Source of the DNA: Clostridia bacterium
GTDB taxonomy: Bacteria; Bacillota; Clostridia; Oscillospirales; CAG-272
Length of the DNA stretch: 64,000 nucleotides
Reading direction: 5' to 3'
NCBI GenBank assembly: GCA_017621655.1
Contig: JAGASS010000051.1
Location: forward strand, 77,418-141,417
Below, in pieces: positions 1 to 12,295 of this stretch. The stretch's first letter is position 1. Every line of letters starts with the position of its first letter. The notes under the pieces are model-generated. The model was not told the DNA's origin, did not search any database, and saw only the letters and a list, made by a program, of their open reading frames with translations. The position numbers and the translations under genes were made by a program.

Positions 1-954
1 TGCCACGCGGCACTTGATATCAAGGAACTTTTCAGCGCCGAGGTCAGCACCGAATCCGGCTTCGGTAACTGCGTAATCGCCGAGCTTCATAGCCATTCTT
101 GTAGCAATAACGGAGTTACAACCGTGAGCAATATTTGCAAAAGGTCCGCCGTGAACGATCGCGGGGGTTCCCTCAAGCGTCTGGACAAGGTTCGGCTTGA
201 GTGCGTCGCGGAGAAGCGCAGTCATAGCACCTGCCGCCTTAAGATCGCCAGCGGTTACCGGCTCGTCGTTATATGTATATCCGACGATTATGCGCGAAAG
301 GCGCGCTTTAAGGTCTGAAAGCGATTCGGAAAGGCAAAGTACTGCCATAATTTCCGATGCAACAGTAATATCATAAGCGTCCTCACGCGGAACACCGTTT
401 ACGCGTCCGCCGAGTCCGTTCGTAACGAAACGGAGCTGACGGTCGTTCATATCAACGCATCTGTGCCAGGTAATGCGGCGAGGGTCGATATTAAGGGCAT
501 TGCCCTGATAAATGTGGTTATCAAGCATTGCGGCAAGAAGGTTGTTTGCCGCGCCGATTGCGTGGAAGTCGCCAGTGAAATGAAGATTAATGTCTTCCAT
601 CGGAACGATCTGCGCGTATCCGCCGCCTGCCGCACCGCCCTTGACGCCGAATACTGGTCCGAGCGACGGCTCGCGAAGAGCTACTACAGACTTTTTACCG
701 ATCTTACGCAGACCGTCAGAAAGTCCGATCGTGGTAGTTGTCTTTCCCTCACCTGCGGGTGTAGGAGTAATAGCTGTTACAAGAATGAGCTTGCCGTTTT
801 CATTTTTACGGTTAAGGATCGAAAGATCAAGCTTTGCCTTATACTTTCCGTACGGCTCATAGGTGTCTTCGTCTATGTCGATCTTGCTTGCGATCTTTCC
901 GATCGGCTCCATTTTGACAGACTGTGCTATTTCAATATCGCTTAAATATGCCAT
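1..954 (-). CDS. fhs: formate--tetrahydrofolate ligase, 5' part only (gene runs off the window start)
   Basis: Not in the ORF track because it is truncated. My reverse translation from the ATG at 952-954 gives [22 protein letters not shown]...[17 protein letters not shown]...[29 protein letters not shown]...[14 protein letters not shown], typical of the FTHFS family. A GGAGAA SD lies in the 13-nt gap after the purL stop. Confidence 0.9.
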
Positions 955-967
955 TTAAGTGTTCTCC

Positions 968-3900
968 TTATTTTTTGAAATAATTTACTGCAGAAGCAAA
1001 TAGCTTCATATCGTACTGACCGATTACGTTCTTGTAGAGGTTCTTGCCGATACGCTCGCTGTGTCCCATCTTACCGAGAACGCGTCCGTCGGGAGAGGTT
1101 ATACCCTCAACTGCAAGGATAGATCCGTTAGGGTTGAACGCGGTATCCATGGTCGGAACGCCGTTAAGATCAACGTACTGCGTTGCGATCTGGCCGTTTT
1201 CAGCAAGCTTGCGAATAAGTGCTTCATCGGCAAGGAAGCGTCCTTCGCCGTGAGAGATCGGAACGGTGTATATCTGACCGACTTCGGTGCCGCTTAGCCA
1301 CGGGGACTTGTTCGTACAAACTCTCGTGCGAACGAGCTTCGACTGATGGCGTCCGATTATATTATATGTAAGAGTCGGGCAGTTTTCGTCGGTATCTATT
1401 ATCTTTCCGTAAGGAACAAGTCCGAGCTTTATAAGTGCCTGGAAGCCGTTACAAATACCGAGCATAAGACCGTCACGGTTATCAAGCAGGTCTCCTACCT
1501 GCTCCTTTATCTCGGGGTTACGGAAGAATGCGGTTATAAACTTCGCAGAGCCGTCCGGCTCATCACCGCCGGAGAATCCGCCGGGAATGAATACCATATT
1601 GCTTTCAGCAAGCTTCTTAGAGACAAGCTCGACGCTGCGGCTTACATCATCCGACGTAAGGTTACGTATAACAACTATCTCCGCTTCAGCTCCCGCATTT
1701 TCAAGAGCGCGCGCGGAATCGTATTCGCAGTTAGTACCAGGGAATACGGGGATAAGTGCCTTCGGACGAGTAGTCTTTACGGCAGGAGAAGCTACTACTC
1801 CGCCGTTATATGCAAACGCGGGAATATTATCTCCCTCTGCCTTAGCGTCGGTCGGATATACGCCCTCAAGAGTTCCCTCGTTAAGCGCGAGAAGCTCGGA
1901 GATCGTCGCCTTTTCGCTTACGAGGTCGATAACCTTTTCATCGGATGTCATACCGATCTTGACAGCGTAATCGGCTGTCACGTCCTCGCTCAGCTCTGCT
2001 ACGATGAAATCATACATCATCGTATTATACCAAGCGTCCTTGATCGCGCCGTTTGAAACGAAGCCGATCTCGTTACCAAACGACATCTTCATAATCGCCT
2101 CGGCAATTCCATTTTCAACGGCGTAAGCCGCCTTTACTTTGCCATCCTTGCAGAGCTTATGGAAGGATTCCCAAGCCGCCTTTGTGGAGTTAGCAGTCTC
2201 ATCTGCAGGGGCAAAGAGATATACGGGATCACCCGCTTCCTTAAACTCGGGAGAGATAACGTCCTTAGCGTTGATCGGAGCGATAGCAAAGGAAATAAGC
2301 GTAGGAGGAACGTCCTTATCAAGGAAGGTTCCCGACATTGAGTCCTTACCGCCGATAGCCGCGGCGTTAAGCTCAAGCTGTGCGTCCATTGCGCCTAGAA
2401 GTGCGGCAAAGGGCTTGCCCCAACGTGTAGGTTCGTTACGGAGCTTTTCAAAGAACTCCTGAAGTGTCAGATAGGCGTCCTTATAATCAGCACCCGATGC
2501 AACGATCTTCGCCATAGAGTTATATACTGCGGCACGTGCGCCCGAATAGGGATCTACGCACATAGCATCGGGATCAAGTCCCCAAGCCATTACGCTCGCC
2601 TGCTCGGTAAACTGACCGGGAAGCACAGGAAGAACTGCCGCCATTGACTGTGCAGGTGTCTTCTGCGTCTTACCGCCGAAAGGCATAAGAATTGAGCTGG
2701 CACCGATCGAGCCGTCAAAGCGCTCGACAAGTCCGCGTCTGCTTGCCGTCTTAAGATCGGATGCCATTTCGCGGAGATCTCCGTACAGAGCATTCGAGAA
2801 TACCGAAAGATCCTTTTCGGTAACTTCAAGGTTAGTGTGCTTATCTGCGCCGTTTGTATTAAGGAATTCGCGGGAAAGGTCAGCTATTATCTGTCCCTTC
2901 CAGCTCATGACCATTCTTGCTTCCTCGGTTACGATGGCAACTCTATACGCTTCAAGATTTTCGCTCTCTGCGTATTCAATGAATTTATCAGCGTCGGATG
3001 CTTCAACAACGACAGCCATTCTTTCCTGAGATTCGGAAATTGCAAGCTCTGTTCCGTCAAGACCGTCATACTTCTTGCGTACTGCATCAAGGTCGATCTT
3101 CAGACCGTCTGCAAGCTCACCGATAGCAACCGAAACGCCGCCTGCGCCGAAGTCGTTACAACGCTTGATAAGACGCGTAACGTCGGGGTTACGGAACAAA
3201 CGCTGGATCTTTCTTTCCTCGGGAGCATTTCCCTTCTGAACTTCGGACGCCATAGTCGTGAGCGACTTCATATTATGGCTCTTTGATGAGCCGGTAGCGC
3301 CACCTATACCGTCGCGGCCTGTTCTGCCGCCGAGCAGGATAATGACGTCGCCTGCCTCGGGGCGCTCACGGCGCACGTTATACGCAGGAGCCGCGGCAAC
3401 GACAGCGCCGCATTCAAGGCGCTTAGCTACGTATCCGTCGTGGTATATTTCCGCTACGTGACCTGTCGCGAGACCTATCTGATTACCGTAGGAGGAATAT
3501 CCTGCGGCCGCCGTCTGACAAAGCTTTCTTTGCGGAAGCTTGCCCGAAAGGGTTTCGGAGAGGGGCTTACGGGGATCAGCCGCACCCATTACACGCATTG
3601 CCTGATGAACGTAAGCGCGTCCCGAAAGGGGGTCACGGATACAACCGCCTATACAGGTTGCCGCACCGCCGAACGGCTCGATCTCGGTCGGGTGGTTATG
3701 GGTTTCATTCTTGAACATCAGAAGCCAATCCTGATCCTCACCGTTTACGTTAGCAGTTACGTGGATCGAGCAAGCATTGATCTCCTCGCTCTCGTCGAGT
3801 TCGGGAAGAAGTCCTCTCTTTTTGAGGACCTTGCCTGCAATCGTCGCAATATCCATAAGGGTCTGCGGACGCTTAGCCGCCTTTTCTTCACCGTACACCT

Positions 3901-4663
3901 CGATTCGCGCGTTAAGGTAACGCTCATATGCTTCGGCAACGGTCTTATCGGATATTTTGACGTTATCAATATGTGTTGAGAAGGTCGTATGACGGCAGTG
4001 GTCTGACCAATACGTGTCAACGACTCTGATCTCAGTTATAGTAGGATCGCGATGCTCCTCGTTCTTAAAATAATCTTGAAGGAACTTAAGGTCATCAAGG
4101 TCCATAGCGAGACCGAGAGTATCAAGAAGCTCGCTAAGACCCTTTTCGTCAAGGGAGATAAATCCGTTAACTGTTGCAACGGTCTCGGGAATAGCGTAGT
4201 CGATAGCAAGCGTTTCGGGCTTACCGAGGTCCGCCTCACGGCTTTCGACTGCGTTTATTACGTACTTTTTGACGGTATTTACGTCATTTTCGGTAAGGTT
4301 TCCGCCGAGAATATATACCTTAGCCGAGCGAACGGTAGGACGCTCACCCTGGCTCTGAAGCTGAATACACTGAGCAGCCGAGTCTGCTCTCTGATCGAAT
4401 TGACCGGGAAGCGGCTCAACGGCAAATACGATACCGTCAACGTTTTCAAGCTCCTTCGATACTTTATCAAGCTGCGGCTCGGAGAATACAGTCTTTACTG
4501 CCTGATCAAAGAGAGCTTCATCAATATTCTCAACGTCGTAACGGTTAATAACTCTTACAGACGTAAGATTTTCGATTCCAACGAGGTTTTTCAGCTCATT
4601 ATATAAGCCGTTCGCCTCATGTGCAAGCTCGGGCTTTTTTTCTACAAATATTCTGTATACCAT
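968..4663 (-). CDS. purL: phosphoribosylformylglycinamidine synthase, single-chain large form with C-terminal glutaminase
   Basis: The 1252-aa ORF has FGAM synthase blocks (NETHNHPTEIEPFGGAATCIGG) and a C-terminal GATase motif (GICNGFQ). I place the start at MVYRIFVEKK (ATG at 4663), preceded by GGAGGAA. The ORF-track extension overlaps purD. Confidence 0.93.
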   Translation of the reverse strand: MVYRIFVEKKPELAHEANGLYNELKNLVGIENLTSVRVINRYDVENIDEALFDQAVKTVFSEPQLDKVSKELENVDGIVFAVEPLPGQFDQRADSAAQCIQLQSQGERPTVRSAKVYILGGNLTENDVNTVKKYVINAVESREADLGKPETLAIDYAIPETVATVNGFISLDEKGLSELLDTLGLAMDLDDLKFLQDYFKNEEHRDPTITEIRVVDTYWSDHCRHTTFSTHIDNVKISDKTVAEAYERYLNARIEVYGEEKAAKRPQTLMDIATIAGKVLKKRGLLPELDESEEINACSIHVTANVNGEDQDWLLMFKNETHNHPTEIEPFGGAATCIGGCIRDPLSGRAYVHQAMRVMGAADPRKPLSETLSGKLPQRKLCQTAAAGYSSYGNQIGLATGHVAEIYHDGYVAKRLECGAVVAAAPAYNVRRERPEAGDVIILLGGRTGRDGIGGATGSSKSHNMKSLTTMASEVQKGNAPEERKIQRLFRNPDVTRLIKRCNDFGAGGVSVAIGELADGLKIDLDAVRKKYDGLDGTELAISESQERMAVVVEASDADKFIEYAESENLEAYRVAIVTEEARMVMSWKGQIIADLSREFLNTNGADKHTNLEVTEKDLSVFSNALYGDLREMASDLKTASRRGLVERFDGSIGASSILMPFGGKTQKTPAQSMAAVLPVLPGQFTEQASVMAWGLDPDAMCVDPYSGARAAVYNSMAKIVASGADYKDAYLTLQEFFEKLRNEPTRWGKPFAALLGAMDAQLELNAAAIGGKDSMSGTFLDKDVPPTLISFAIAPINAKDVISPEFKEAGDPVYLFAPADETANSTKAAWESFHKLCKDGKVKAAYAVENGIAEAIMKMSFGNEIGFVSNGAIKDAWYNTMMYDFIVAELSEDVTADYAVKIGMTSDEKVIDLVSEKATISELLALNEGTLEGVYPTDAKAEGDNIPAFAYNGGVVASPAVKTTRPKALIPVFPGTNCEYDSARALENAGAEAEIVVIRNLTSDDVSRSVELVSKKLAESNMVFIPGGFSGGDEPDGSAKFITAFFRNPEIKEQVGDLLDNRDGLMLGICNGFQALIKLGLVPYGKIIDTDENCPTLTYNIIGRHQSKLVRTRVCTNKSPWLSGTEVGQIYTVPISHGEGRFLADEALIRKLAENGQIATQYVDLNGVPTMDTAFNPNGSILAVEGITSPDGRVLGKMGHSERIGKNLYKNVIGQYDMKLFASAVNYFKK

Positions 4664-4664
4664 G

Positions 4665-5933
4665 TTATTCCTCCAGCGCTTTAAGGGCGCGCGCGCCGAT
4701 GTCTTTGCGGTAGAAAGCGTTATCAAAGCTTATCTTGCTTACGAGCTTATATGCCTCGCTAATTGCTTCGGGAAGCGTATTTGCAACTGCTGTTGCGCCG
4801 AGAACTCGTCCGCCTGCGGTAACAAGCTTTCCGTCCTTTTCAGCCGCTCCAGCAACGTAGACGTTACCTGCTATTTCATCGGGGATATTTATCTCAAATC
4901 CCTTTTCATAGCTCTGCGGATAGCCGTTTGACGCCATAATTACGCAGCAAGCGTGCTTATCCTCGAAAACGACCTCGGTCTCGTCAAGCGTTCCGTTTGT
5001 CGTTGCCTTCATAATTGTCAGAAGATCGCTCTTAAGAAGCGGAAGCACGACCTGCGTTTCGGGGTCGCCGAAGCGGCAGTTATACTCGATTACCTTCGGT
5101 CCGTCGGGGGTTATCATAAGTCCGAAGTAAAGACATCCCTTAAACGGTCTGCCCTCCTGCACCATAGCATTTACGGTCGGAAGGAAGATCGTTTTCATAC
5201 AGACGTCCGCAACTTCTTTTGTATAATACGGGTTAGGGGCAACGGTTCCCATACCGCCTGTATTAAGTCCCTCGTCATTATCGTGCGCTCTCTTGTGGTC
5301 CATAGACGAAACCATCGGCTTGACAGTCTTTCCGTCTGTAAACGCGAGAACTGAAACCTCGGGACCTGTGAGGAATTCCTCGATAACAACTCTTGAACCG
5401 CTGTTACCGAACACCTTGTCGCTCATCATACTCTTGACAGCGTCGACAGCTTCCTCCCTTGTCATAGCGACTATAACGCCCTTACCGAGAGCAAGACCGT
5501 CCGCCTTAATAACTATCGGAATCTTGCAGGTTTCAAGATATTTGAGTGCATCTGCTTCATTATCAAATGTCTCGTATTCAGCCGTCGGAATACCGTATTT
5601 TTTCATAAGATTCTTTGAAAAGATCTTACTTCCCTCGATCTCTGCCGCCTTAGCGCCAGGACCGAAGCACGGAATTCCCTTTTCATTCAGCGCGTCGACC
5701 GCGCCGAGTACGAGCGGATCGTCGGGCGCGACTACTGCATAGTCGATAGCGTTATTAACCGCAAAATCAACTATTGCGGGAATATCCTTTGCGCCGATGT
5801 TGACTAATGTAGCATCACCCGCCATTCCCGCGTTTCCGGGAAGGGCGTAGATGACGTCTATCTCTTTATTTTCTTTCAGCTTTTTAATGATGGCGTGCTC
5901 TCTGCCGCCACCGCCAACTACCATTATTTTCAT
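4665..5933 (-). CDS. purD: phosphoribosylamine--glycine ligase
   Basis: MKIMVVGGGGREHAI and ATP-grasp blocks match the GARS family. The ORF-track start is an upstream TTG. ATG at 5933 is chosen, but its SD is weak. Confidence 0.9.
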   Translation of the reverse strand: MKIMVVGGGGREHAIIKKLKENKEIDVIYALPGNAGMAGDATLVNIGAKDIPAIVDFAVNNAIDYAVVAPDDPLVLGAVDALNEKGIPCFGPGAKAAEIEGSKIFSKNLMKKYGIPTAEYETFDNEADALKYLETCKIPIVIKADGLALGKGVIVAMTREEAVDAVKSMMSDKVFGNSGSRVVIEEFLTGPEVSVLAFTDGKTVKPMVSSMDHKRAHDNDEGLNTGGMGTVAPNPYYTKEVADVCMKTIFLPTVNAMVQEGRPFKGCLYFGLMITPDGPKVIEYNCRFGDPETQVVLPLLKSDLLTIMKATTNGTLDETEVVFEDKHACCVIMASNGYPQSYEKGFEINIPDEIAGNVYVAGAAEKDGKLVTAGGRVLGATAVANTLPEAISEAYKLVSKISFDNAFYRKDIGARALKALEE

Positions 5934-5953
5934 AGCTGCACCAAACAATTATA

Positions 5954-7138
5954 TCAGTGATGGAAAAGTCTCATTCCGGTGAATGCCATAGCCATACCGT
6001 ACTTATCACAGCACTCGATAACGAGGTCGTCACGGATTGATCCGCCCGGCTCAGCTATGTACTTAACGCCGCTCTTCTTTGCTCTTTCGATGTTATCGCT
6101 GAACGGGAAGAACGCATCTGAGCCAAGTGCTACACCGTCGATAGTATCAAGGTAAGCTCTCTGCTCTTCCTTGGTGAATGGAGCGGGCTGAGACGTAAAG
6201 TACTTCTGCCAGTTGCCGTCAGCACAAACGTCCTCTTCATTCTGATTTATATAACCGTCTATAACATTATCACGGTCGGGACGTCCGATTGTGTCCTTGA
6301 AAGGAAGGTTAAGGACCTTGTCGGACTGACGAAGGAACCAGGTGTCCGCCTTACCGCCTGCAAGACGGGTACAGTGAACACGGGACTGCTGACCTGCACC
6401 AACGCCTATTGCCTGTCCGTCAACTGCGAAGCAAACGGAGTTAGACTGCGTATATTTGAGGGTAATAAGCGAGATTATAAGGTCGCGGACAGCGCTTTCG
6501 GGCATATCCTTATTTGCGGTAACTACGTTAGAAAGAAGCTCCTTATTGATCTTGAAGTTGTTTCTTCCCTGCTCAAAGGTGATACCGTAGACCTGCTTGC
6601 GCTCTGCCTCATCGGGAACGAAGTTCGGGTCGATCTTTACGATATTGTAGCTTCCCTTTCTCTTGGATTTGAGGATCTCAAGAGCTTCCGGCTCGTATCC
6701 GGGAGCGATAACGCCGTCGGATACCTCGCGCTTGATCATAAACGCGGTGGTGACGTCGCAAACGTCAGAAAGCGCTACCCAGTCACCGAAGGAGCACATT
6801 CTGTCGGTTCCTCTTGCTCTTGCGTAAGCACAAGCGAGAGGCGACTCGTCAAGTCCTTCAATATCATCGACGAAGCATGCCTTCTTGAGCTTCTCGGAAA
6901 GAGGAAGACCGATAGCGGCTGATGTCGGAGAAACGTGCTTAAACGAGGTAACAGCAGGCATTCCGAGAGCTTCCTTAAGCTCCTTTACAAGCTGCCAGGA
7001 GTTAAATGCGTCAAGGAAATTGATATAACCGGGGCGGCCGTTCAGGATATCGATAGGAAGATCCGAGCCGTCGTGCATATATATTTTAGAGGGCTTCTGA
7101 TTGGGGTTACAGCCGTATTTAAGTTCAAATTCTTTCAT
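5954..7138 (-). CDS. purH: AICAR formyltransferase (PurH C-terminal domain only, no MGS/IMP-cyclohydrolase domain)
   Basis: The 394-aa product starts with LKYGCNPNQ and ends with TGMRLFHH, as in the AICARFT half of PurH. An AAAGGAG SD precedes it. Confidence 0.88.
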   Translation of the reverse strand: MKEFELKYGCNPNQKPSKIYMHDGSDLPIDILNGRPGYINFLDAFNSWQLVKELKEALGMPAVTSFKHVSPTSAAIGLPLSEKLKKACFVDDIEGLDESPLACAYARARGTDRMCSFGDWVALSDVCDVTTAFMIKREVSDGVIAPGYEPEALEILKSKRKGSYNIVKIDPNFVPDEAERKQVYGITFEQGRNNFKINKELLSNVVTANKDMPESAVRDLIISLITLKYTQSNSVCFAVDGQAIGVGAGQQSRVHCTRLAGGKADTWFLRQSDKVLNLPFKDTIGRPDRDNVIDGYINQNEEDVCADGNWQKYFTSQPAPFTKEEQRAYLDTIDGVALGSDAFFPFSDNIERAKKSGVKYIAEPGGSIRDDLVIECCDKYGMAMAFTGMRLFHH

Positions 7139-7157: not shown

Positions 7158-7880
7158 TCAAGCGTTTTTGTTTATTGTAATGATCTCATCCTTATTGCTG
7201 CAAAGAGAATGAGAAATAACAACAAGAGAAACTTTGTTATCCTCGTTTAAGTTCTTCCAGCAGAGGTCAGCTAATTCCTTTGCGGTGTTGGGAAGAGATA
7301 CCTCCTCGGGTTCACCATAGAATGAAGGAATAGGATTGCCGTCACACTTATAGGTGTGGATAAAGTGTCCAATACCTGACTCGGGTACGTACTCGTAGAA
7401 GAAACGCTGACAAACCTCGGGGCGTCCGTTTGCACTCTTGAGAATAGAGAGCTTATATGTAAAGTCAGAATGATCCTCGTTGTAATCAACTATACCCGAA
7501 ATTCTTGGAGTATAGTTGGGATGGTCTGGCTCGTACTCACGAGTACGCAGTGCCTCCTCAAATGTCTTGCCTTCGTTTATAAAATCATAGATCGTATTGG
7601 TCTGATCACCGTTGGTGATGATGTCTGTATTGCCGTTATTGGCGGAAAGATAGGGATTGTAGATAATAAGACTGGGATCAGAGAGCTTGGACTCGTCAAA
7701 TGCCTTTGTACGCATACCGTTCTCAAACCACTCAAATACTCTGTTGCGGCTATTTTCGCTTCTGCCCATTATAAAGTACGCGATAAGCGCGCTCTTTCCG
7801 TCTGCGGATTTACCGATAACGATTCCGCGTCCGGGATAAGTGTTTTCGCTCAAAAGCTTAGTAAGATCGTAAAGTGCCAT
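7158..7880 (-). CDS. purO: IMP cyclohydrolase, PurO-like (archaeal type)
   Basis: YPGRGIVIGKSADGKSALIAYFIMGRSENSRNRVF resembles the PurO family N-terminus. I place the start at MALYDL (ATG at 7880), 1 nt after the purN stop, with the SD AAAGGAAA inside the purN 3' end. Confidence 0.75.
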   Translation of the reverse strand: MALYDLTKLLSENTYPGRGIVIGKSADGKSALIAYFIMGRSENSRNRVFEWFENGMRTKAFDESKLSDPSLIIYNPYLSANNGNTDIITNGDQTNTIYDFINEGKTFEEALRTREYEPDHPNYTPRISGIVDYNEDHSDFTYKLSILKSANGRPEVCQRFFYEYVPESGIGHFIHTYKCDGNPIPSFYGEPEEVSLPNTAKELADLCWKNLNEDNKVSLVVISHSLCSNKDEIITINKNA

Positions 7881-7881
7881 A

Positions 7882-8502
7882 TCAGTTATTTCCTTTCGCA
7901 TCCATTATTTCTTTTGATACCTTTTCGCAAGAGAGAGGAAGTATCTTCCACTCCGCCTGCTTCATAACTCTTTTTTGGAGAGACTCGGGAGTATCGTTCT
8001 TACATATCTTGACGGCTTTTTGCATAATAATTCTGCCGCCGTCGGGAATTTCATTTACGAAATGAACAGTTGCGCCCGTTACCTTAACGCCGTATTCAAG
8101 CGCCGCCTCGTGGACGCGCAGACCGTAGAATCCCTTGCCGCAAAACGACGGGATAAGTGAGGGGTGAACGTTAATTATCCTCTCGGGATAACGCGAGGTG
8201 AAATTCTCGGTCAGAATTGACATAAAGCCCGCAAGGACTATAAGCTCAATACCGTAGCGGTCAAGAACCTCAATTATTCCCTTTTCAAAAAGCTCCTGCG
8301 AGCCGTTAAGAAGACGCTTACAGACGACCTCTGTCGGAATACCTGCATTTTTTGCACGGACAAGACCGTAAGCATCGGGCTGTGACGAGATAACGCAAGT
8401 AATTTCGCCGCTTTTTATAATTCCGCTGTTCTGCGCATCTATCAGCGCCTGCAGATTCGTTCCGCCGCCTGAGATAAGGACGGCAATTTTCGTTTTACTC
8501 AT
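7882..8502 (-). CDS. purN: phosphoribosylglycinamide formyltransferase
   Basis: KIAVLISGGGTNLQALID and NVHPSLIPSFCG are GART motifs. The SD AAGGAGG lies in the last codons of the upstream gene. Confidence 0.92.
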   Translation of the reverse strand: MSKTKIAVLISGGGTNLQALIDAQNSGIIKSGEITCVISSQPDAYGLVRAKNAGIPTEVVCKRLLNGSQELFEKGIIEVLDRYGIELIVLAGFMSILTENFTSRYPERIINVHPSLIPSFCGKGFYGLRVHEAALEYGVKVTGATVHFVNEIPDGGRIIMQKAVKICKNDTPESLQKRVMKQAEWKILPLSCEKVSKEIMDAKGNN

Positions 8503-8503
8503 A

Positions 8504-9115
8504 TCAGCCCTCCTTTTTTTTGCCTTTAAGCAAGGTCAGTGTCGGGAACAAAAGTCCGCCGACGGTATTTCCAAGGATAACTATTACGAGGAAAACAAGC
8601 ATTTCAAGCGAGAATATTCTTGCAGTGAAGAAGTAAAACATATCCGCAATCGAATGCTCGAATCCGCTAAGAATAAACACGGGAACGCAGAAGAAGATAG
8701 CAAGCGGAGATTTGTTTTCCTTAAATACCGCAACCGCGAGATACATAAGTATTCCGCAGAATATCGCCTTGATGAATACGCCGAGAAGATTATCGTCAAG
8801 CTTGGCTTCACACATAGTCTTAGCGAGAACTGCTCTATCCGAAAGCGCGAAGCTTACAGCCAAACCTGAAAGAAGCGTTCCAATGACGTTACCGAAAAGC
8901 CCCGTCATAAGAGTAACGAAGTCGCTTCCCTTGTGGTTATACGCCATAAATCCGATCTTGCCTGTATAAAGCGAGTAACCGCGATAACAGATTATAAGAA
9001 GCGCTATCGTAAAGAAGCACGCACCGGGAATACCTCCGCCAACCGAGAGAAGCACCGTTCCGCCGATGCCTATCATAAGTCCTGCGAGGATACCGTCTAT
9101 AGTTCCCTTCAGCAT
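8504..9115 (-). CDS. formate/nitrite transporter (FNT) family channel, short form
   Basis: The 203-aa polytopic membrane protein carries FNT-like blocks [11 protein letters not shown] and [11 protein letters not shown]. Its start overlaps the purM stop (ATGCTGA), and its stop lies 1 nt before the purN ATG. Confidence 0.7.
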
Positions 9116-10155
9116 ATTACGACCTTTTCCTCACTCTTAACTATCTTACCGATAGTGTAAGCGTCGATACCGTTATTCTTAAGTATCTCGATTGCCTTGT
9201 CTGCCTCAGTGGCAGGAACTACTATGCTCATTCCAACGCCCATATTATATGTATTGAACATATCTCTTTCGGGGATGTTACCGAATTTTGCGATAAGATC
9301 GAAAATGGGAAGGATCTTGACAGACGCCTTGTCGATAACTGCGCCGAGACCGTCGGGAATGCTTCTCGGAATATTCTCGTAGAATCCGCCGCCCGTGATA
9401 TGCGAAATGCCGTGAACATTGACCTCGCTAAGGAGCGCGAGCACCGGCTTTACGTATATCTTAGTAGGCGTAAGAAGTGCCTCGGCTATCGTTTTACCGC
9501 CAAGCTCTTCCCTCTCAACGTAAAGAAGCGGATCGTTATTATCAATATTAAATACCTTACGGCAAAGCGAGAAGCCGTTACTGTGAATACCTGTCGAGGG
9601 AAGCGCGATAACAATATCGCCCTCCTGCATCTTCTTATTGTCGATAATCTTCTTTTTATCAACGATACCGACAGCAAAACCGGCGAGGTCATAATCGTCG
9701 ATAGGCATAAGTCCGGGATGCTCGGCAGTCTCACCGCCAATCAGAGCCGCGCCCGACTGAACGCAACCCTCAGCAACACCCGATACGATCGCCGCGATCT
9801 TCTCGGGAACGTTCTTTCCGCAAGCGATATAATCAAGGAAGAAAAGTGGCTTTGCGCCGACGCAGATAATGTCGTTTACGCACATTGCGACCGCGTCGAT
9901 ACCGATAGTATCGTGCTTGTCCATAAGGATAGCAAGCTTGACCTTAGTTCCGCAACCGTCAGTTCCCGAAACAAGAACCGGCTCCTCCATTCCGCTGATG
10001 GGAAGACCGAAGCAACCGCCAAAGCCGCCAACGTCATCAAGACAGCCCTCGTTTCTCGTGCGTGCGATATGCGCCTTCATAAGCTCTACTGCTTTGTAAC
10101 CTGCGGTGATGTCAACACCTGCCTGCTTGTAGCTTTCGCTGTAACTGCTTTTCAT
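9109..10155 (-). CDS. purM: phosphoribosylformylglycinamidine cyclo-ligase (AIR synthetase)
   Basis: [19 protein letters not shown] and the overall length (348 aa) fit the PurM family. Confidence 0.93.
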
Positions 10156-10176: not shown

Positions 10177-11601
10177 TTATTCTTTACCGTTCCAGCAATA
10201 GGTGCAAAGCTTGCACGGATCAATTCCTATTGCCTTTATTACGCCGTCAAGCGACTGGAAGTCGAGCGAATCAAAGTGGAAGCGCTCACATATAGTCTTA
10301 CGAAGCGCCTTACCTCTTTCGGTAGATCCGTCGCTGTATTCTTCAATATAGTTGAAGCCCTCCTCGCCCTCAAGCTCGTTTATGATCCTGCGAGCGATAA
10401 GCTCCATATCGGATGTCGCGCGGCTGAAATTAAGATACTTACAGCCATACATGATCGGAGGACACGCAGAGCGCATGTGAACGCTCTTTGCGCCGTTATC
10501 GTAAAGGAAGTCTACAGTTTCCTTAAGCTGTGTACCGCGGACGATTGAGTCGTCAACGAACATAAGGTGCTTGTCCTTGATAAGCTCAAGAACCGGTATC
10601 TGCTTCATCTTTGCGACCTTGCTTCTTGCCGCCTGCGTAGTAGGCGTGAAGGAACGCGACCAAGTGGGAGTATACTTTATAAATGCTCTTGCAAACGGCA
10701 GATGGCTAGCATTTGAATAACCGATAGCATGAGGGGTACCCGAATCGGGAACGCCGACGACGTATTCGATGTTCTCATCAAGACCTGCCTTACGGTCGTT
10801 TTCAGCCATAATCTGTCCGTTTCGATAACGCATTATCTCAACATTGACACCCTCATAGGTCGATGTCGGGTAACCATAGTAGCTCCAAAGGAAGGAGCAA
10901 ATACGCATCTCTTTTCCCGGCTCGGCAAGCTGACGGCAGTAATCGGAGCAAAGCTCGACGATCTCTCCCGGTCCAAGCTCCTTATGATGCTCATAACCGA
11001 GCTTTTGATATGCGTACGCCTCGAAGGATACACAGTATCCTTCATCTTTACGTCCTATCTGTACGGGAATTCGTCCGAGACGGTCACGAGCCGCAATGAT
11101 CTTTCCGTCATCCTTAAGAATAATGATCGAGGCAGTTCCGTCAATTATCTCTTGCGCAAAGTGTATACCGTCGACGAAATTTTCCTTTTGTCCGATAAGC
11201 GCCGCTACAAGCTCCGTAGAGTTTACGTTTCCGCCCGTCATCGCGTTAAAATGAGCGGAGCACTCGGAAAGATGATCGCTTATCAGCTGTTCGGCATTGT
11301 TGATTATACCTACAAAGCAGATAGCAAACTTTCCGAGACGCGAACGCACAAGAAGCGGCTGTGGATCAAAGTCACTGATGCAACCGATCGCCGAGTTGCC
11401 CTTCATATCGTCAAAGACGTGCTCAAACTTCGTACGGAAGGGAGAGTTTTGTATATTGTGTATTTCTCTTTGCAGACCCGCAAGATCGTGATATGCGGCG
11501 ATACCACCGCATTTCGTTCCGAGATGCGAATGATAGTCTGTACCGAAAAATACGTCTGAAATTGCGTCGCACTTAAGCGCCGCGCCGAAATATCCGCCCA
11601 T
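10177..11601 (-). CDS. purF: amidophosphoribosyltransferase-like protein (divergent N-terminus, no Cys at position 2)
   Basis: The PRTase block LMFVDDSIVRGTQ and the position between purE and purM support the call. The N-terminus is MGGYFGA instead of the canonical MCG. An AGAGGT SD precedes it. Confidence 0.8.
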   Translation of the reverse strand: MGGYFGAALKCDAISDVFFGTDYHSHLGTKCGGIAAYHDLAGLQREIHNIQNSPFRTKFEHVFDDMKGNSAIGCISDFDPQPLLVRSRLGKFAICFVGIINNAEQLISDHLSECSAHFNAMTGGNVNSTELVAALIGQKENFVDGIHFAQEIIDGTASIIILKDDGKIIAARDRLGRIPVQIGRKDEGYCVSFEAYAYQKLGYEHHKELGPGEIVELCSDYCRQLAEPGKEMRICSFLWSYYGYPTSTYEGVNVEIMRYRNGQIMAENDRKAGLDENIEYVVGVPDSGTPHAIGYSNASHLPFARAFIKYTPTWSRSFTPTTQAARSKVAKMKQIPVLELIKDKHLMFVDDSIVRGTQLKETVDFLYDNGAKSVHMRSACPPIMYGCKYLNFSRATSDMELIARRIINELEGEEGFNYIEEYSDGSTERGKALRKTICERFHFDSLDFQSLDGVIKAIGIDPCKLCTYCWNGKE

Positions 11602-11622: not shown

Positions 11623-12123
11623 TTATGCGTTGAATTTTTCTTCGATTGCTCTGTTCTTTTCGAGAACCTTCTCTGCTCCCTCGCTTCTTGCCTTGTCAAG
11701 ACGCGCGGCAAGCGCACCGTCTGTAACGGCAAGTATCTGAACAGAAAGCATAGCGGCATTGGCAGCTCCGTCGATAGCTACTGTTGCGACAGGTATTCCT
11801 GTCGGCATCTGTACTGTCGAAAGAAGCGCGTCAATGCCGTCGAGATTTTTACTTTTTACAGGTATTCCGATAACGGGAAGCGTAGTGTTAGCCGCTATTG
11901 CCCCCGCAAGATGTGCCGCCATACCCGCAGCGGCAATTATAGCGCCGAAGCCGTTTGCTCTTGCATTGACCGCAAACTCCTTTGCCTCGACGGGCGTTCT
12001 GTGCGCCGAATAAACGTGTACCTCGAACGGTACACCGTATTCTTTAAGCACGTTAATTGCTTTTTCGACAACGGGAAGATCGCTATCGCTTCCCATTACG
12101 ATTCCAACCTTTTTAATGCTCAT
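11623..12123 (-). CDS. purE: 5-(carboxyamino)imidazole ribonucleotide mutase
   Basis: VGIVMGSDSDLPV and YSAHRTP are PurE motifs. I place the start at MSIKKV with GGAGGTAACT immediately upstream. Confidence 0.92.
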   Translation of the reverse strand: MSIKKVGIVMGSDSDLPVVEKAINVLKEYGVPFEVHVYSAHRTPVEAKEFAVNARANGFGAIIAAAGMAAHLAGAIAANTTLPVIGIPVKSKNLDGIDALLSTVQMPTGIPVATVAIDGAANAAMLSVQILAVTDGALAARLDKARSEGAEKVLEKNRAIEEKFNA

Positions 12124-12149
12124 AGTTACCTCCAATTACCCGACAAATC

Positions 12150-12250
12150 AAAAATGGGCAGTCTTGCCTTATAATGCAAAACTGCCCAGACGGTCGGCTT
12201 TATTATTTTCCGTTCCCCGGTGGTTGCCCACCCATCCGTCAGTTGCGGAA
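12150..12250 (-). promoter_or_regulatory. ZTP (pfl-motif) riboswitch aptamer (about 12181-12250) plus overlapping intrinsic terminator (12150-12189)
   Basis: The minus strand reads UUCCGCAACUGACGGAUGGGUGGGCAACCACCGGGGAACGGAA, then an A-rich linker, then GCCGACCGUCUGGGCAG. Structural elements are P1 UUCCG/CGGAA, the hairpin GGUGG-GCAA-CCACC followed by GGGGA, and 3' CCGUC pairing with GACGG (pseudoknot) followed by UGGGC. The terminator GGGCAGUUUUGC...GCAAGACUGCCC+AUUUUU shares its 5' arm with the conserved CUGGGCAG. Confidence 0.8.
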
Positions 12251-12265
12251 AATCTCAACGCACTT

Positions 12266-12295
12266 ATTATACCATATATAAATATAAAAAGTCAA
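12266..12295 (-). promoter_or_regulatory. sigma-A type promoter of the pur operon
   Basis: On the minus strand: TTGACT, an 18-nt spacer, then TGGTATAAT (extended -10). Confidence 0.7.

Follow-up and report, generated by a model that had tools for sequence, protein, structure and literature searches.

A short membrane protein encoded in the middle of a purine biosynthesis operon of a Clostridia bacterium is probably a formate uptake channel that is induced through a ZTP riboswitch and feeds formate-tetrahydrofolate ligase (Fhs). The protein is a formate/nitrite transporter (FNT) family member, and its gene is distributed among genomes in a pattern complementary to that of pyruvate formate-lyase (PFL). 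The initial annotation of the 64,000 nt window (the whole stretch of DNA analyzed) had read this locus as a candidate ZTP-controlled formate supply module. The evidence presented below supports that interpretation, in which formate would be the substrate and uptake the direction of transport.

A short FNT gene is embedded in a purine operon

The gene resides on the minus strand of the window within an operon ordered ZTP riboswitch, purE, purF, purM, FNT, purN, purO, purH, purD, purL and fhs. The features of this region are as follows.

12266..12295 (-), near-consensus promoter-like site TTGACT-18-TATAAT with TG ahead of the -10 hexamer (11/12 matches)
12177..12256 (-), ZMP/ZTP riboswitch aptamer (RF01750, 62 bits, cut-off 39)
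12155..12188 (-), terminator hairpin of 13 pairs with a T run; the aptamer 3′ end and the hairpin 5′ arm overlap
11623..12135 (-), purE, AIR carboxylase family (Pfam)
10177..11601 (-), purF-like amidophosphoribosyltransferase (Pfam)
9109..10155 (-), purM, AIR synthase (Pfam)
8504..9115 (-), short FNT-family channel gene, 203 aa (P0001; ORF, Pfam, NCBIfam, PDB profile search, AF2, Foldseek, FocA alignment)
7882..8502 (-), purN, GAR formyltransferase, which uses 10-formyl-THF (Pfam)
7158..7901 (-), PurO-like IMP cyclohydrolase (PF07826)
5954..7138 (-), PurH of the AICAR formyltransferase-only type (NF005492, 683 bits)
4665..5948 (-), purD (Pfam)
968..4726 (-), purL, large FGAM synthase (ORF and Pfam)
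1..954 (-), fhs, formate-tetrahydrofolate ligase, truncated at the window edge (NF010030, E 1e-178)

Because the mechanical ORF call for purL extends into purD, translation of purL probably begins downstream of the called start. The full-length fhs gene is found at G000:C38:76701-78359. The RF01750 match is the sole ZTP riboswitch in the whole 2.1-Mb genome, and it lies with its expression platform upstream of the operon, on the same strand and without an intervening terminator. Overlap between aptamer and terminator is the layout expected of a genetic ON switch, and it is from this layout that riboswitch function is predicted. These matches agree with the earlier proposal that the operon is governed by a ZTP riboswitch, carries fhs at its distal end and encodes PurN and AICAR formyltransferase together with the FNT protein.

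The 2.1-Mb genome (96.7% complete) has no other gene of the FNT family. As first described, an ORF encoding a 203 aa membrane protein separates purM from purN and is translationally coupled to both. Specifically, its ATG (9115-9113) lies in the terminal 7 nt of purM (stop codon 9111-9109), and its TGA (8506-8504) is followed by a single base and then the purN ATG (8502-8500). The sequence AGGAGG, positioned ahead of purN, is contained in the last codons of the FNT gene.

The short protein retains the FNT core

The translation carries the two FNT hallmark-like blocks, of 11 and 10 residues, on which family membership was initially proposed, and this assignment holds across the full length of the protein. 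The match to Pfam family PF01226 (Form_Nir_trans) scores 93.1 bits against a cut-off of 34.6, with residues 5-194 aligned to profile positions 22-237 of 240. The protein scores below the equivalog cut-offs for FocA (TIGR04060, 44.5 versus 290.1; NF008069, 21.1 versus 440) and NirC (NF008595, 39.1 versus 293), as well as below that for the generic ‘fnt’ subfamily (TIGR00790, 55.1 versus 232.3), and so it falls into none of the curated NCBIfam subfamilies. The only NCBIfam models matched were those for FocA, NirC and generic FNT. When a profile built from 30 family members was searched against the PDB, every solved FNT was recovered, including HSC (3e-24), Vibrio FocA (3e-21), NirC (5e-20), LciA (1.5e-19) and PfFNT (2e-13).

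An AlphaFold (AF2) model of the single chain (pLDDT 95.1, pTM 0.91) predicts a six-helix fold in which the omega and S loops interrupt TM2 and TM5, with helix breaks at residues 46-49 and 150-154. Foldseek TMq values for this model are 0.87 with HSC, 0.86 with LciA, 0.83 with FocA, and 0.78 with both NirC and PfFNT. The predicted FNT fold, with its central His and Thr, is the one that had been anticipated, and pentameric assembly of the modeled chain is presumed. We conclude from these results that the short FNT, although divergent, truly belongs to the FNT family.

Residues were mapped by alignment to E. coli FocA (285 aa), and invariance was judged in 30 diverse family members. The short FNT residues T51, H154, K105 and E153 correspond to T91, H209, K156 and E208 of FocA, and N76 and N183 correspond to N121 and N262. 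The central constriction is preserved as F35, F147 and A157 (FocA F75, F202 and A212), and two slit leucines are preserved as L39 and L49 (FocA L79 and L89). The conserved FNT pore-lining set is therefore present (K105, E153, N183, N76, F35, F147, L39 and L49). Moreover, T51, H154, F147, N76, N183 and the pore Lys are invariant in all 30 proteins. This constriction, F-F-H-A, is of the FocA/HSC type (PMC5525234).

The cytoplasmic slit differs at two positions, where N172 and V175 of FocA are replaced by G121 and M124. N172 is important for translocation by FocA, and the sole natural variant known there is Gly (PMC9380403), a substitution also recorded in PMC5525234. FocA N213 is also replaced, by D158, a change that is near-native when made in FocA (PMC9380403).

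As the initial annotation had noted, the protein is shorter than classical FocA and NirC proteins, with 82 aa less than E. coli FocA. The 82 FocA residues left unpaired in the alignment make up its entire N-terminal domain (1-30) along with segments of five loops, and thus the short FNT amounts to a full FNT core in minimal form. FocA requires its cytoplasmic N-terminal domain for function (PMC8914244). Absence of this domain would fit an ungated channel that operates in cells without a PflB partner.

Short FNT genes recur with purine genes and ZTP riboswitches

The short FNT has matches in more than 4,000 clusters at 90% identity and, with E < 1e-10, in 1,216 clusters at 50% identity, nearly all of the latter with proteins of 195-220 aa. 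Gene contexts were surveyed at 80 loci, drawn from gut and rumen Clostridia contigs with each species represented by one genome. The purM-FNT-purN arrangement proved to be widespread, occurring inside a purE...purL(-fhs) operon in 61 of the 80 loci. Where the 5′ end of such an operon was covered, a ZTP riboswitch was present 40-156 nt ahead of purE in 43 of 49 cases. In total, 50 of the 80 loci carry a ZTP riboswitch, and seven of these RNAs lie directly before FNT-led units.

Among the loci with other arrangements, four (L025, L038, L045 and L067) have a ZTP riboswitch directly ahead of a monocistronic FNT gene, with unrelated flanking genes (CotH, sugar transferase, GxGYxYP hydrolase, FtsH-like, epimerase). 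Two more (L034 and L065) have the order ZTP, FNT, purO, fhs, one (L050) has ZTP, guaB, FNT, purO, purB ... purH, fhs, and one (L100) has FNT, glyA, fhs. On a quick maximum-likelihood tree (SH-aLRT), which leaves most deep branches unresolved, the various contexts originated several times and are interspersed with the purine-embedded FNT genes. Stand-alone ZTP-FNT units arose at least twice on this tree, given its weak deep nodes. It is difficult to see why a ZTP riboswitch would govern the channel alone if the channel did not relieve a shortage of 10-formyl-THF.

About a dozen loci place the FNT gene among unrelated genes without a ZTP riboswitch, and the contexts of L052, L053, L056, L072-L075, L086 and L094 gave no functional hint. 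Two loci associate the gene with lysine synthesis. At L100:7476-13761, a lysine-riboswitch operon dapA-lysA-FNT is followed by glyA-fhs, with a 4-nt overlap between the lysA stop and the FNT start. At L095:3434-9184, a lysine-riboswitch operon has the order dapA-lysA-dapF-aminotransferase-FNT-pspC. The formate model does not explain this association. As a separate observation, two adjacent matches to Gut-1 RNA (RF01706) are found on opposite strands beside a tRNA at L034:8037-8219, approximately 1.6 kb upstream of the ZTP-FNT-purO-fhs unit.

Short FNTs and PFL have complementary distributions

The source genome contains fhs, glyA and folD, and searches of this 96.7% complete genome found neither PFL nor the alpha subunit of formate dehydrogenase. 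Fhs is thus left without an evident bulk internal source of formate. Serine can supply one-carbon units via GlyA and FolD, and the presence of both genes means that formate is not the sole route to 10-formyl-THF in this organism.

We examined 201 genomes of the same order with completeness of at least 90%, in which the family profile separates short FNTs (at least 158 bits) from other FNTs (at most 108 bits). Short FNTs are present in 59 of these genomes (~30% of the sample) and are spread across 15 families. Co-occurrence with fhs is uninformative, because 198 of the 201 genomes carry that gene. In contrast, true PFL, found in 80 genomes overall, is present in only 6 of the 59 genomes with a short FNT versus 74 of the 142 others (odds ratio 0.10; nominal Fisher p 1e-8, a value that is overstated because the sampled genomes are related). 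Six of the 201 genomes therefore carry both genes, and 68 carry neither. The split recurs inside at least 10 families, and we conclude that short FNTs and PFL are distributed in a complementary way.

The same relationship is evident within the source genus, where PFL is present in 1 of 10 FNT-positive genomes versus 5 of 9 FNT-negative ones. In all five FNT-negative congeners examined, purM adjoins purN (the two are 72 nt apart in G008 and 5-23 nt apart in the other four), and so the FNT gene is a presence/absence polymorphism at this junction. Four of these five congeners have PFL; G008 lacks both FNT and PFL. Furthermore, a ZTP riboswitch lies 60-110 nt ahead of pflB in four of eight PFL-positive relatives, and three of those four (G002, G016 and G007) belong to the source genus. 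The same sensor therefore appears to turn on either a formate-making enzyme or a channel.

Sequence comparison of congeners also revealed uneven divergence along the operon. In locus L008 (G007:C3:1-3019), identity to the window is 93-99% for purF, purM and FNT, whereas it is only ~60% for purN and purO. This drop at the FNT/purN junction (compared with window positions 7158-10155) may mark a recombination breakpoint immediately downstream of the FNT gene. Among the congeners, only G007 has both FNT and PFL. The FNT of L009 (G009) is 80% identical to that of the window, compared with 96% and 90% for the neighboring purM and purN, and the FNT of L010 (G018) is 47% identical, compared with 65-73% for purM and 70% for purN. 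Faster divergence of the FNT gene could reflect either relaxed constraint or replacement by a distant allele. In the FNT-less loci L108, L110 and L111 (G012, G006 and G008), the amidotransferase encoded before purM is ~29% identical to the window PurF. Two other congeners encode in this slot an enzyme that is 78-80% identical, and therefore two types of purF occupy the same position within one genus.

Proposed function of the short FNT

A shortage of one-carbon units raises ZMP and ZTP. In the mechanism that we favor, depletion of 10-formyl-THF would lead to ZMP/ZTP accumulation, and the riboswitch would then let transcription proceed into the operon. By way of the overlapping and abutting reading frames, the channel would be produced in step with PurN, AICAR formyltransferase and Fhs. 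Formate is plentiful in gut and rumen, and from outside the cell it could then enter through the His/Thr pore as formate or formic acid. Fhs ligates formate to THF, and 10-formyl-THF serves both purine formylation steps. The product of Fhs would in this manner supply C8 and C2 of the purine ring. The source organism has no recognizable formate synthesis of its own, and relatives fill the same regulatory slot with PFL.

The invariant pore His fits a role in uptake, since FocA needs this residue for uptake and not for efflux, and FocA variants with N or Q in its place only export (PMC8914244). Weighing against the assignment are the standing of HSC as the nearest solved relative, the two slit changes, the lack of an N-terminal domain, and the 68 of 201 genomes that have neither gene.

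A broader version of this proposal can be formulated, for and against which we find the arguments evenly balanced. Short FNTs may be dedicated formate importers that dispense with the FocA gating domain and serve as an alternative to PFL. Gut and rumen Clostridia would then be split into makers (ZTP-pfl) and takers (ZTP-FNT) of formate, with the takers drawing purine C2 and C8 from cross-fed formate when one-carbon units are short. If this is true, a large FNT branch that has no name (~1,200 clusters at 50% identity) would gain a function, a membrane transporter would be added to the ZTP one-carbon regulon, and it would be explained how PFL-less gut anaerobes feed a near-universal Fhs. Formate would be a cross-fed biosynthetic nutrient in gut and rumen communities, beyond its role as an electron carrier. 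Short FNTs would also represent natural minimal FNTs that are useful for probing the roles of the FocA N-terminal domain and Asn172.

Alternative roles for the short FNT

FNT channels are bidirectional and somewhat promiscuous, with formate, nitrite, HS-, lactate, acetate and possibly bicarbonate among their substrates. These properties limit the assignment of formate, and sequence alone does not fix the substrate. The short FNT might carry another small anion or weak acid connected to purine synthesis, such as bicarbonate/CO2 for AIR carboxylation, HS-, nitrite, acetate or lactate. The best match in both sequence and fold is a hydrosulfide channel (HSC), LciA, an algal bicarbonate-related protein, matches as well as FocA does, and slit residues G121 and M124 are unlike those of FocA. 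The two loci in which the FNT gene follows lysA, which encodes a CO2-releasing decarboxylase, behind a lysine riboswitch point in the same direction. We nevertheless consider another substrate unlikely, because the ZTP riboswitch specifically reports a shortage of 10-formyl-THF and in several genomes stands before the FNT gene alone. Likewise, the gene is recurrently accompanied by fhs, glyA, purN and purH rather than by sulfite or nitrite reductases, its complementary pattern is with a producer of formate, and its F-F-H-A constriction is common to FocA (PMC5525234).

Some of these substrates were evaluated individually. Searches for purK in the source genome returned only weak ATP-grasp matches (at most 35 bits). 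Because no purK was found, PurE is probably of the CO2-using class II type, bicarbonate would not be a substrate of the carboxylation step in this organism, and bicarbonate supply for PurE/PurK was rejected as a role for the channel. Roles in nitrite and HS- transport were rejected on gene context.

Release of formate or formic acid that builds up inside the cell, in place of import, is a still less probable role. FNTs can work in both directions, E. coli FocA exports formate during growth (PMC8914244), and minor cellular reactions release formate. However, a genome with neither PFL nor formate dehydrogenase offers no bulk internal formate to export, and a short FNT is absent from most genomes that produce formate with PFL. 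Export would also oppose the action of Fhs, which is encoded on the same transcript and is subject to the same one-carbon shortage signal. Moreover, the pore His is invariant in short FNTs, although efflux-only FNTs can do without it (PMC8914244).

Finally, we regard it as highly implausible that the protein is a decayed or accessory passenger of the operon with no consequential transport role: it is ~80 aa shorter than classical FNTs, diverges faster than its neighbors (in one congener, 47% identity versus 65-73% for purM) and shows losses among congeners, but the conserved length (nearly all of ~1,200 clusters at 50% identity are 195-220 aa), invariant pore residues, confidently predicted and complete fold, and conserved operon position and riboswitch linkage are the pattern of a gene under selection.

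Comparison with known FNTs and the ZTP regulon

Induced formate uptake, the role that we favor for the short FNT, can be set against several known systems. HSC (FNT3) of Clostridioides difficile (PDB 3TDO and others) is the best match by both sequence (89 bits, 27-29% identity) and structure (TMq up to 0.87), and its residues L82, T84, K148, F194 and H201 have identical counterparts in a profile alignment. HSC is a 268 aa protein with an N-terminal helix, whereas the short FNT has neither this length nor an N-terminal domain. The HSC gene resides alongside sulfite reductase genes. In contrast, the partners of the short FNT gene are pur genes, fhs, glyA and ZTP riboswitches.

FocA of E. coli and Vibrio (PDB 3KCU, 3KLY and 9G49) has the six-helix fold in common with the short FNT (TMq 0.81-0.83), along with the central Thr/His pair, the vestibule Lys, the Phe-Phe-His-Ala constriction and the Leu-Leu slit, and formate is the likely shared substrate. 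The two proteins are only 25% identical, and the short FNT reaches 44.5 bits against the TIGR04060 cut-off of 290. FocA residues 1-30 form a domain without a counterpart in the short FNT, whose loops are also shorter. Whereas FocA is linked to pflB and tied to fermentation, the short FNT gene is not beside pflB, resides in a genome without PFL, and is tied through its ZTP riboswitch to the anabolism of purines.

The uncharacterized YfdC-type FNTs share with the short FNT a Gly at the N172 position and a Met or Ile at the V175 position. The YfdC slit has the sequence FLFG[IM] (PMC5525234), and that of the short FNT is L-L-Y-G-M. However, YfdC proteins have the longest N-termini of the FNT family and a different central constriction (PMC5525234), whereas the short FNT lacks the N-terminus and keeps the F-F-H-A constriction. 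Kinship with YfdC was considered as an explanation for the Gly/Met slit and is unsupported by length, constriction residues or NCBIfam matches.

The genes of the ZTP (pfl motif) regulon include pfl, fhs, glyA, folD and purH. In a literature search that left the original 2015 ZTP paper outside its reach, no paper was found that joins ZTP or its riboswitch with a formate transporter, or an FNT with purM or purN. No FNT gene is named in the first 200 of the 438 supplementary files of the pfl-motif paper, and the FNT classification paper (PMC5525234) mentions neither a purine context nor a short class. The link between FNTs and the pur operon or ZTP regulon is thus apparently undescribed, although a bare listing elsewhere, such as in an earlier gene table, is possible.

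According to the logic established for the pfl motif, a one-carbon shortage calls for a source of formate together with Fhs, and 10-formyl-THF is rebuilt (PMC2864571). The short FNT operon follows the same logic, and congeners carry the riboswitch ahead of pflB. The formate source in the known regulon is an enzyme, PFL, whereas the source proposed here is import through a membrane channel. The short FNT would act most like FocA in its uptake mode and would fill the role of PFL in the ZTP regulon.
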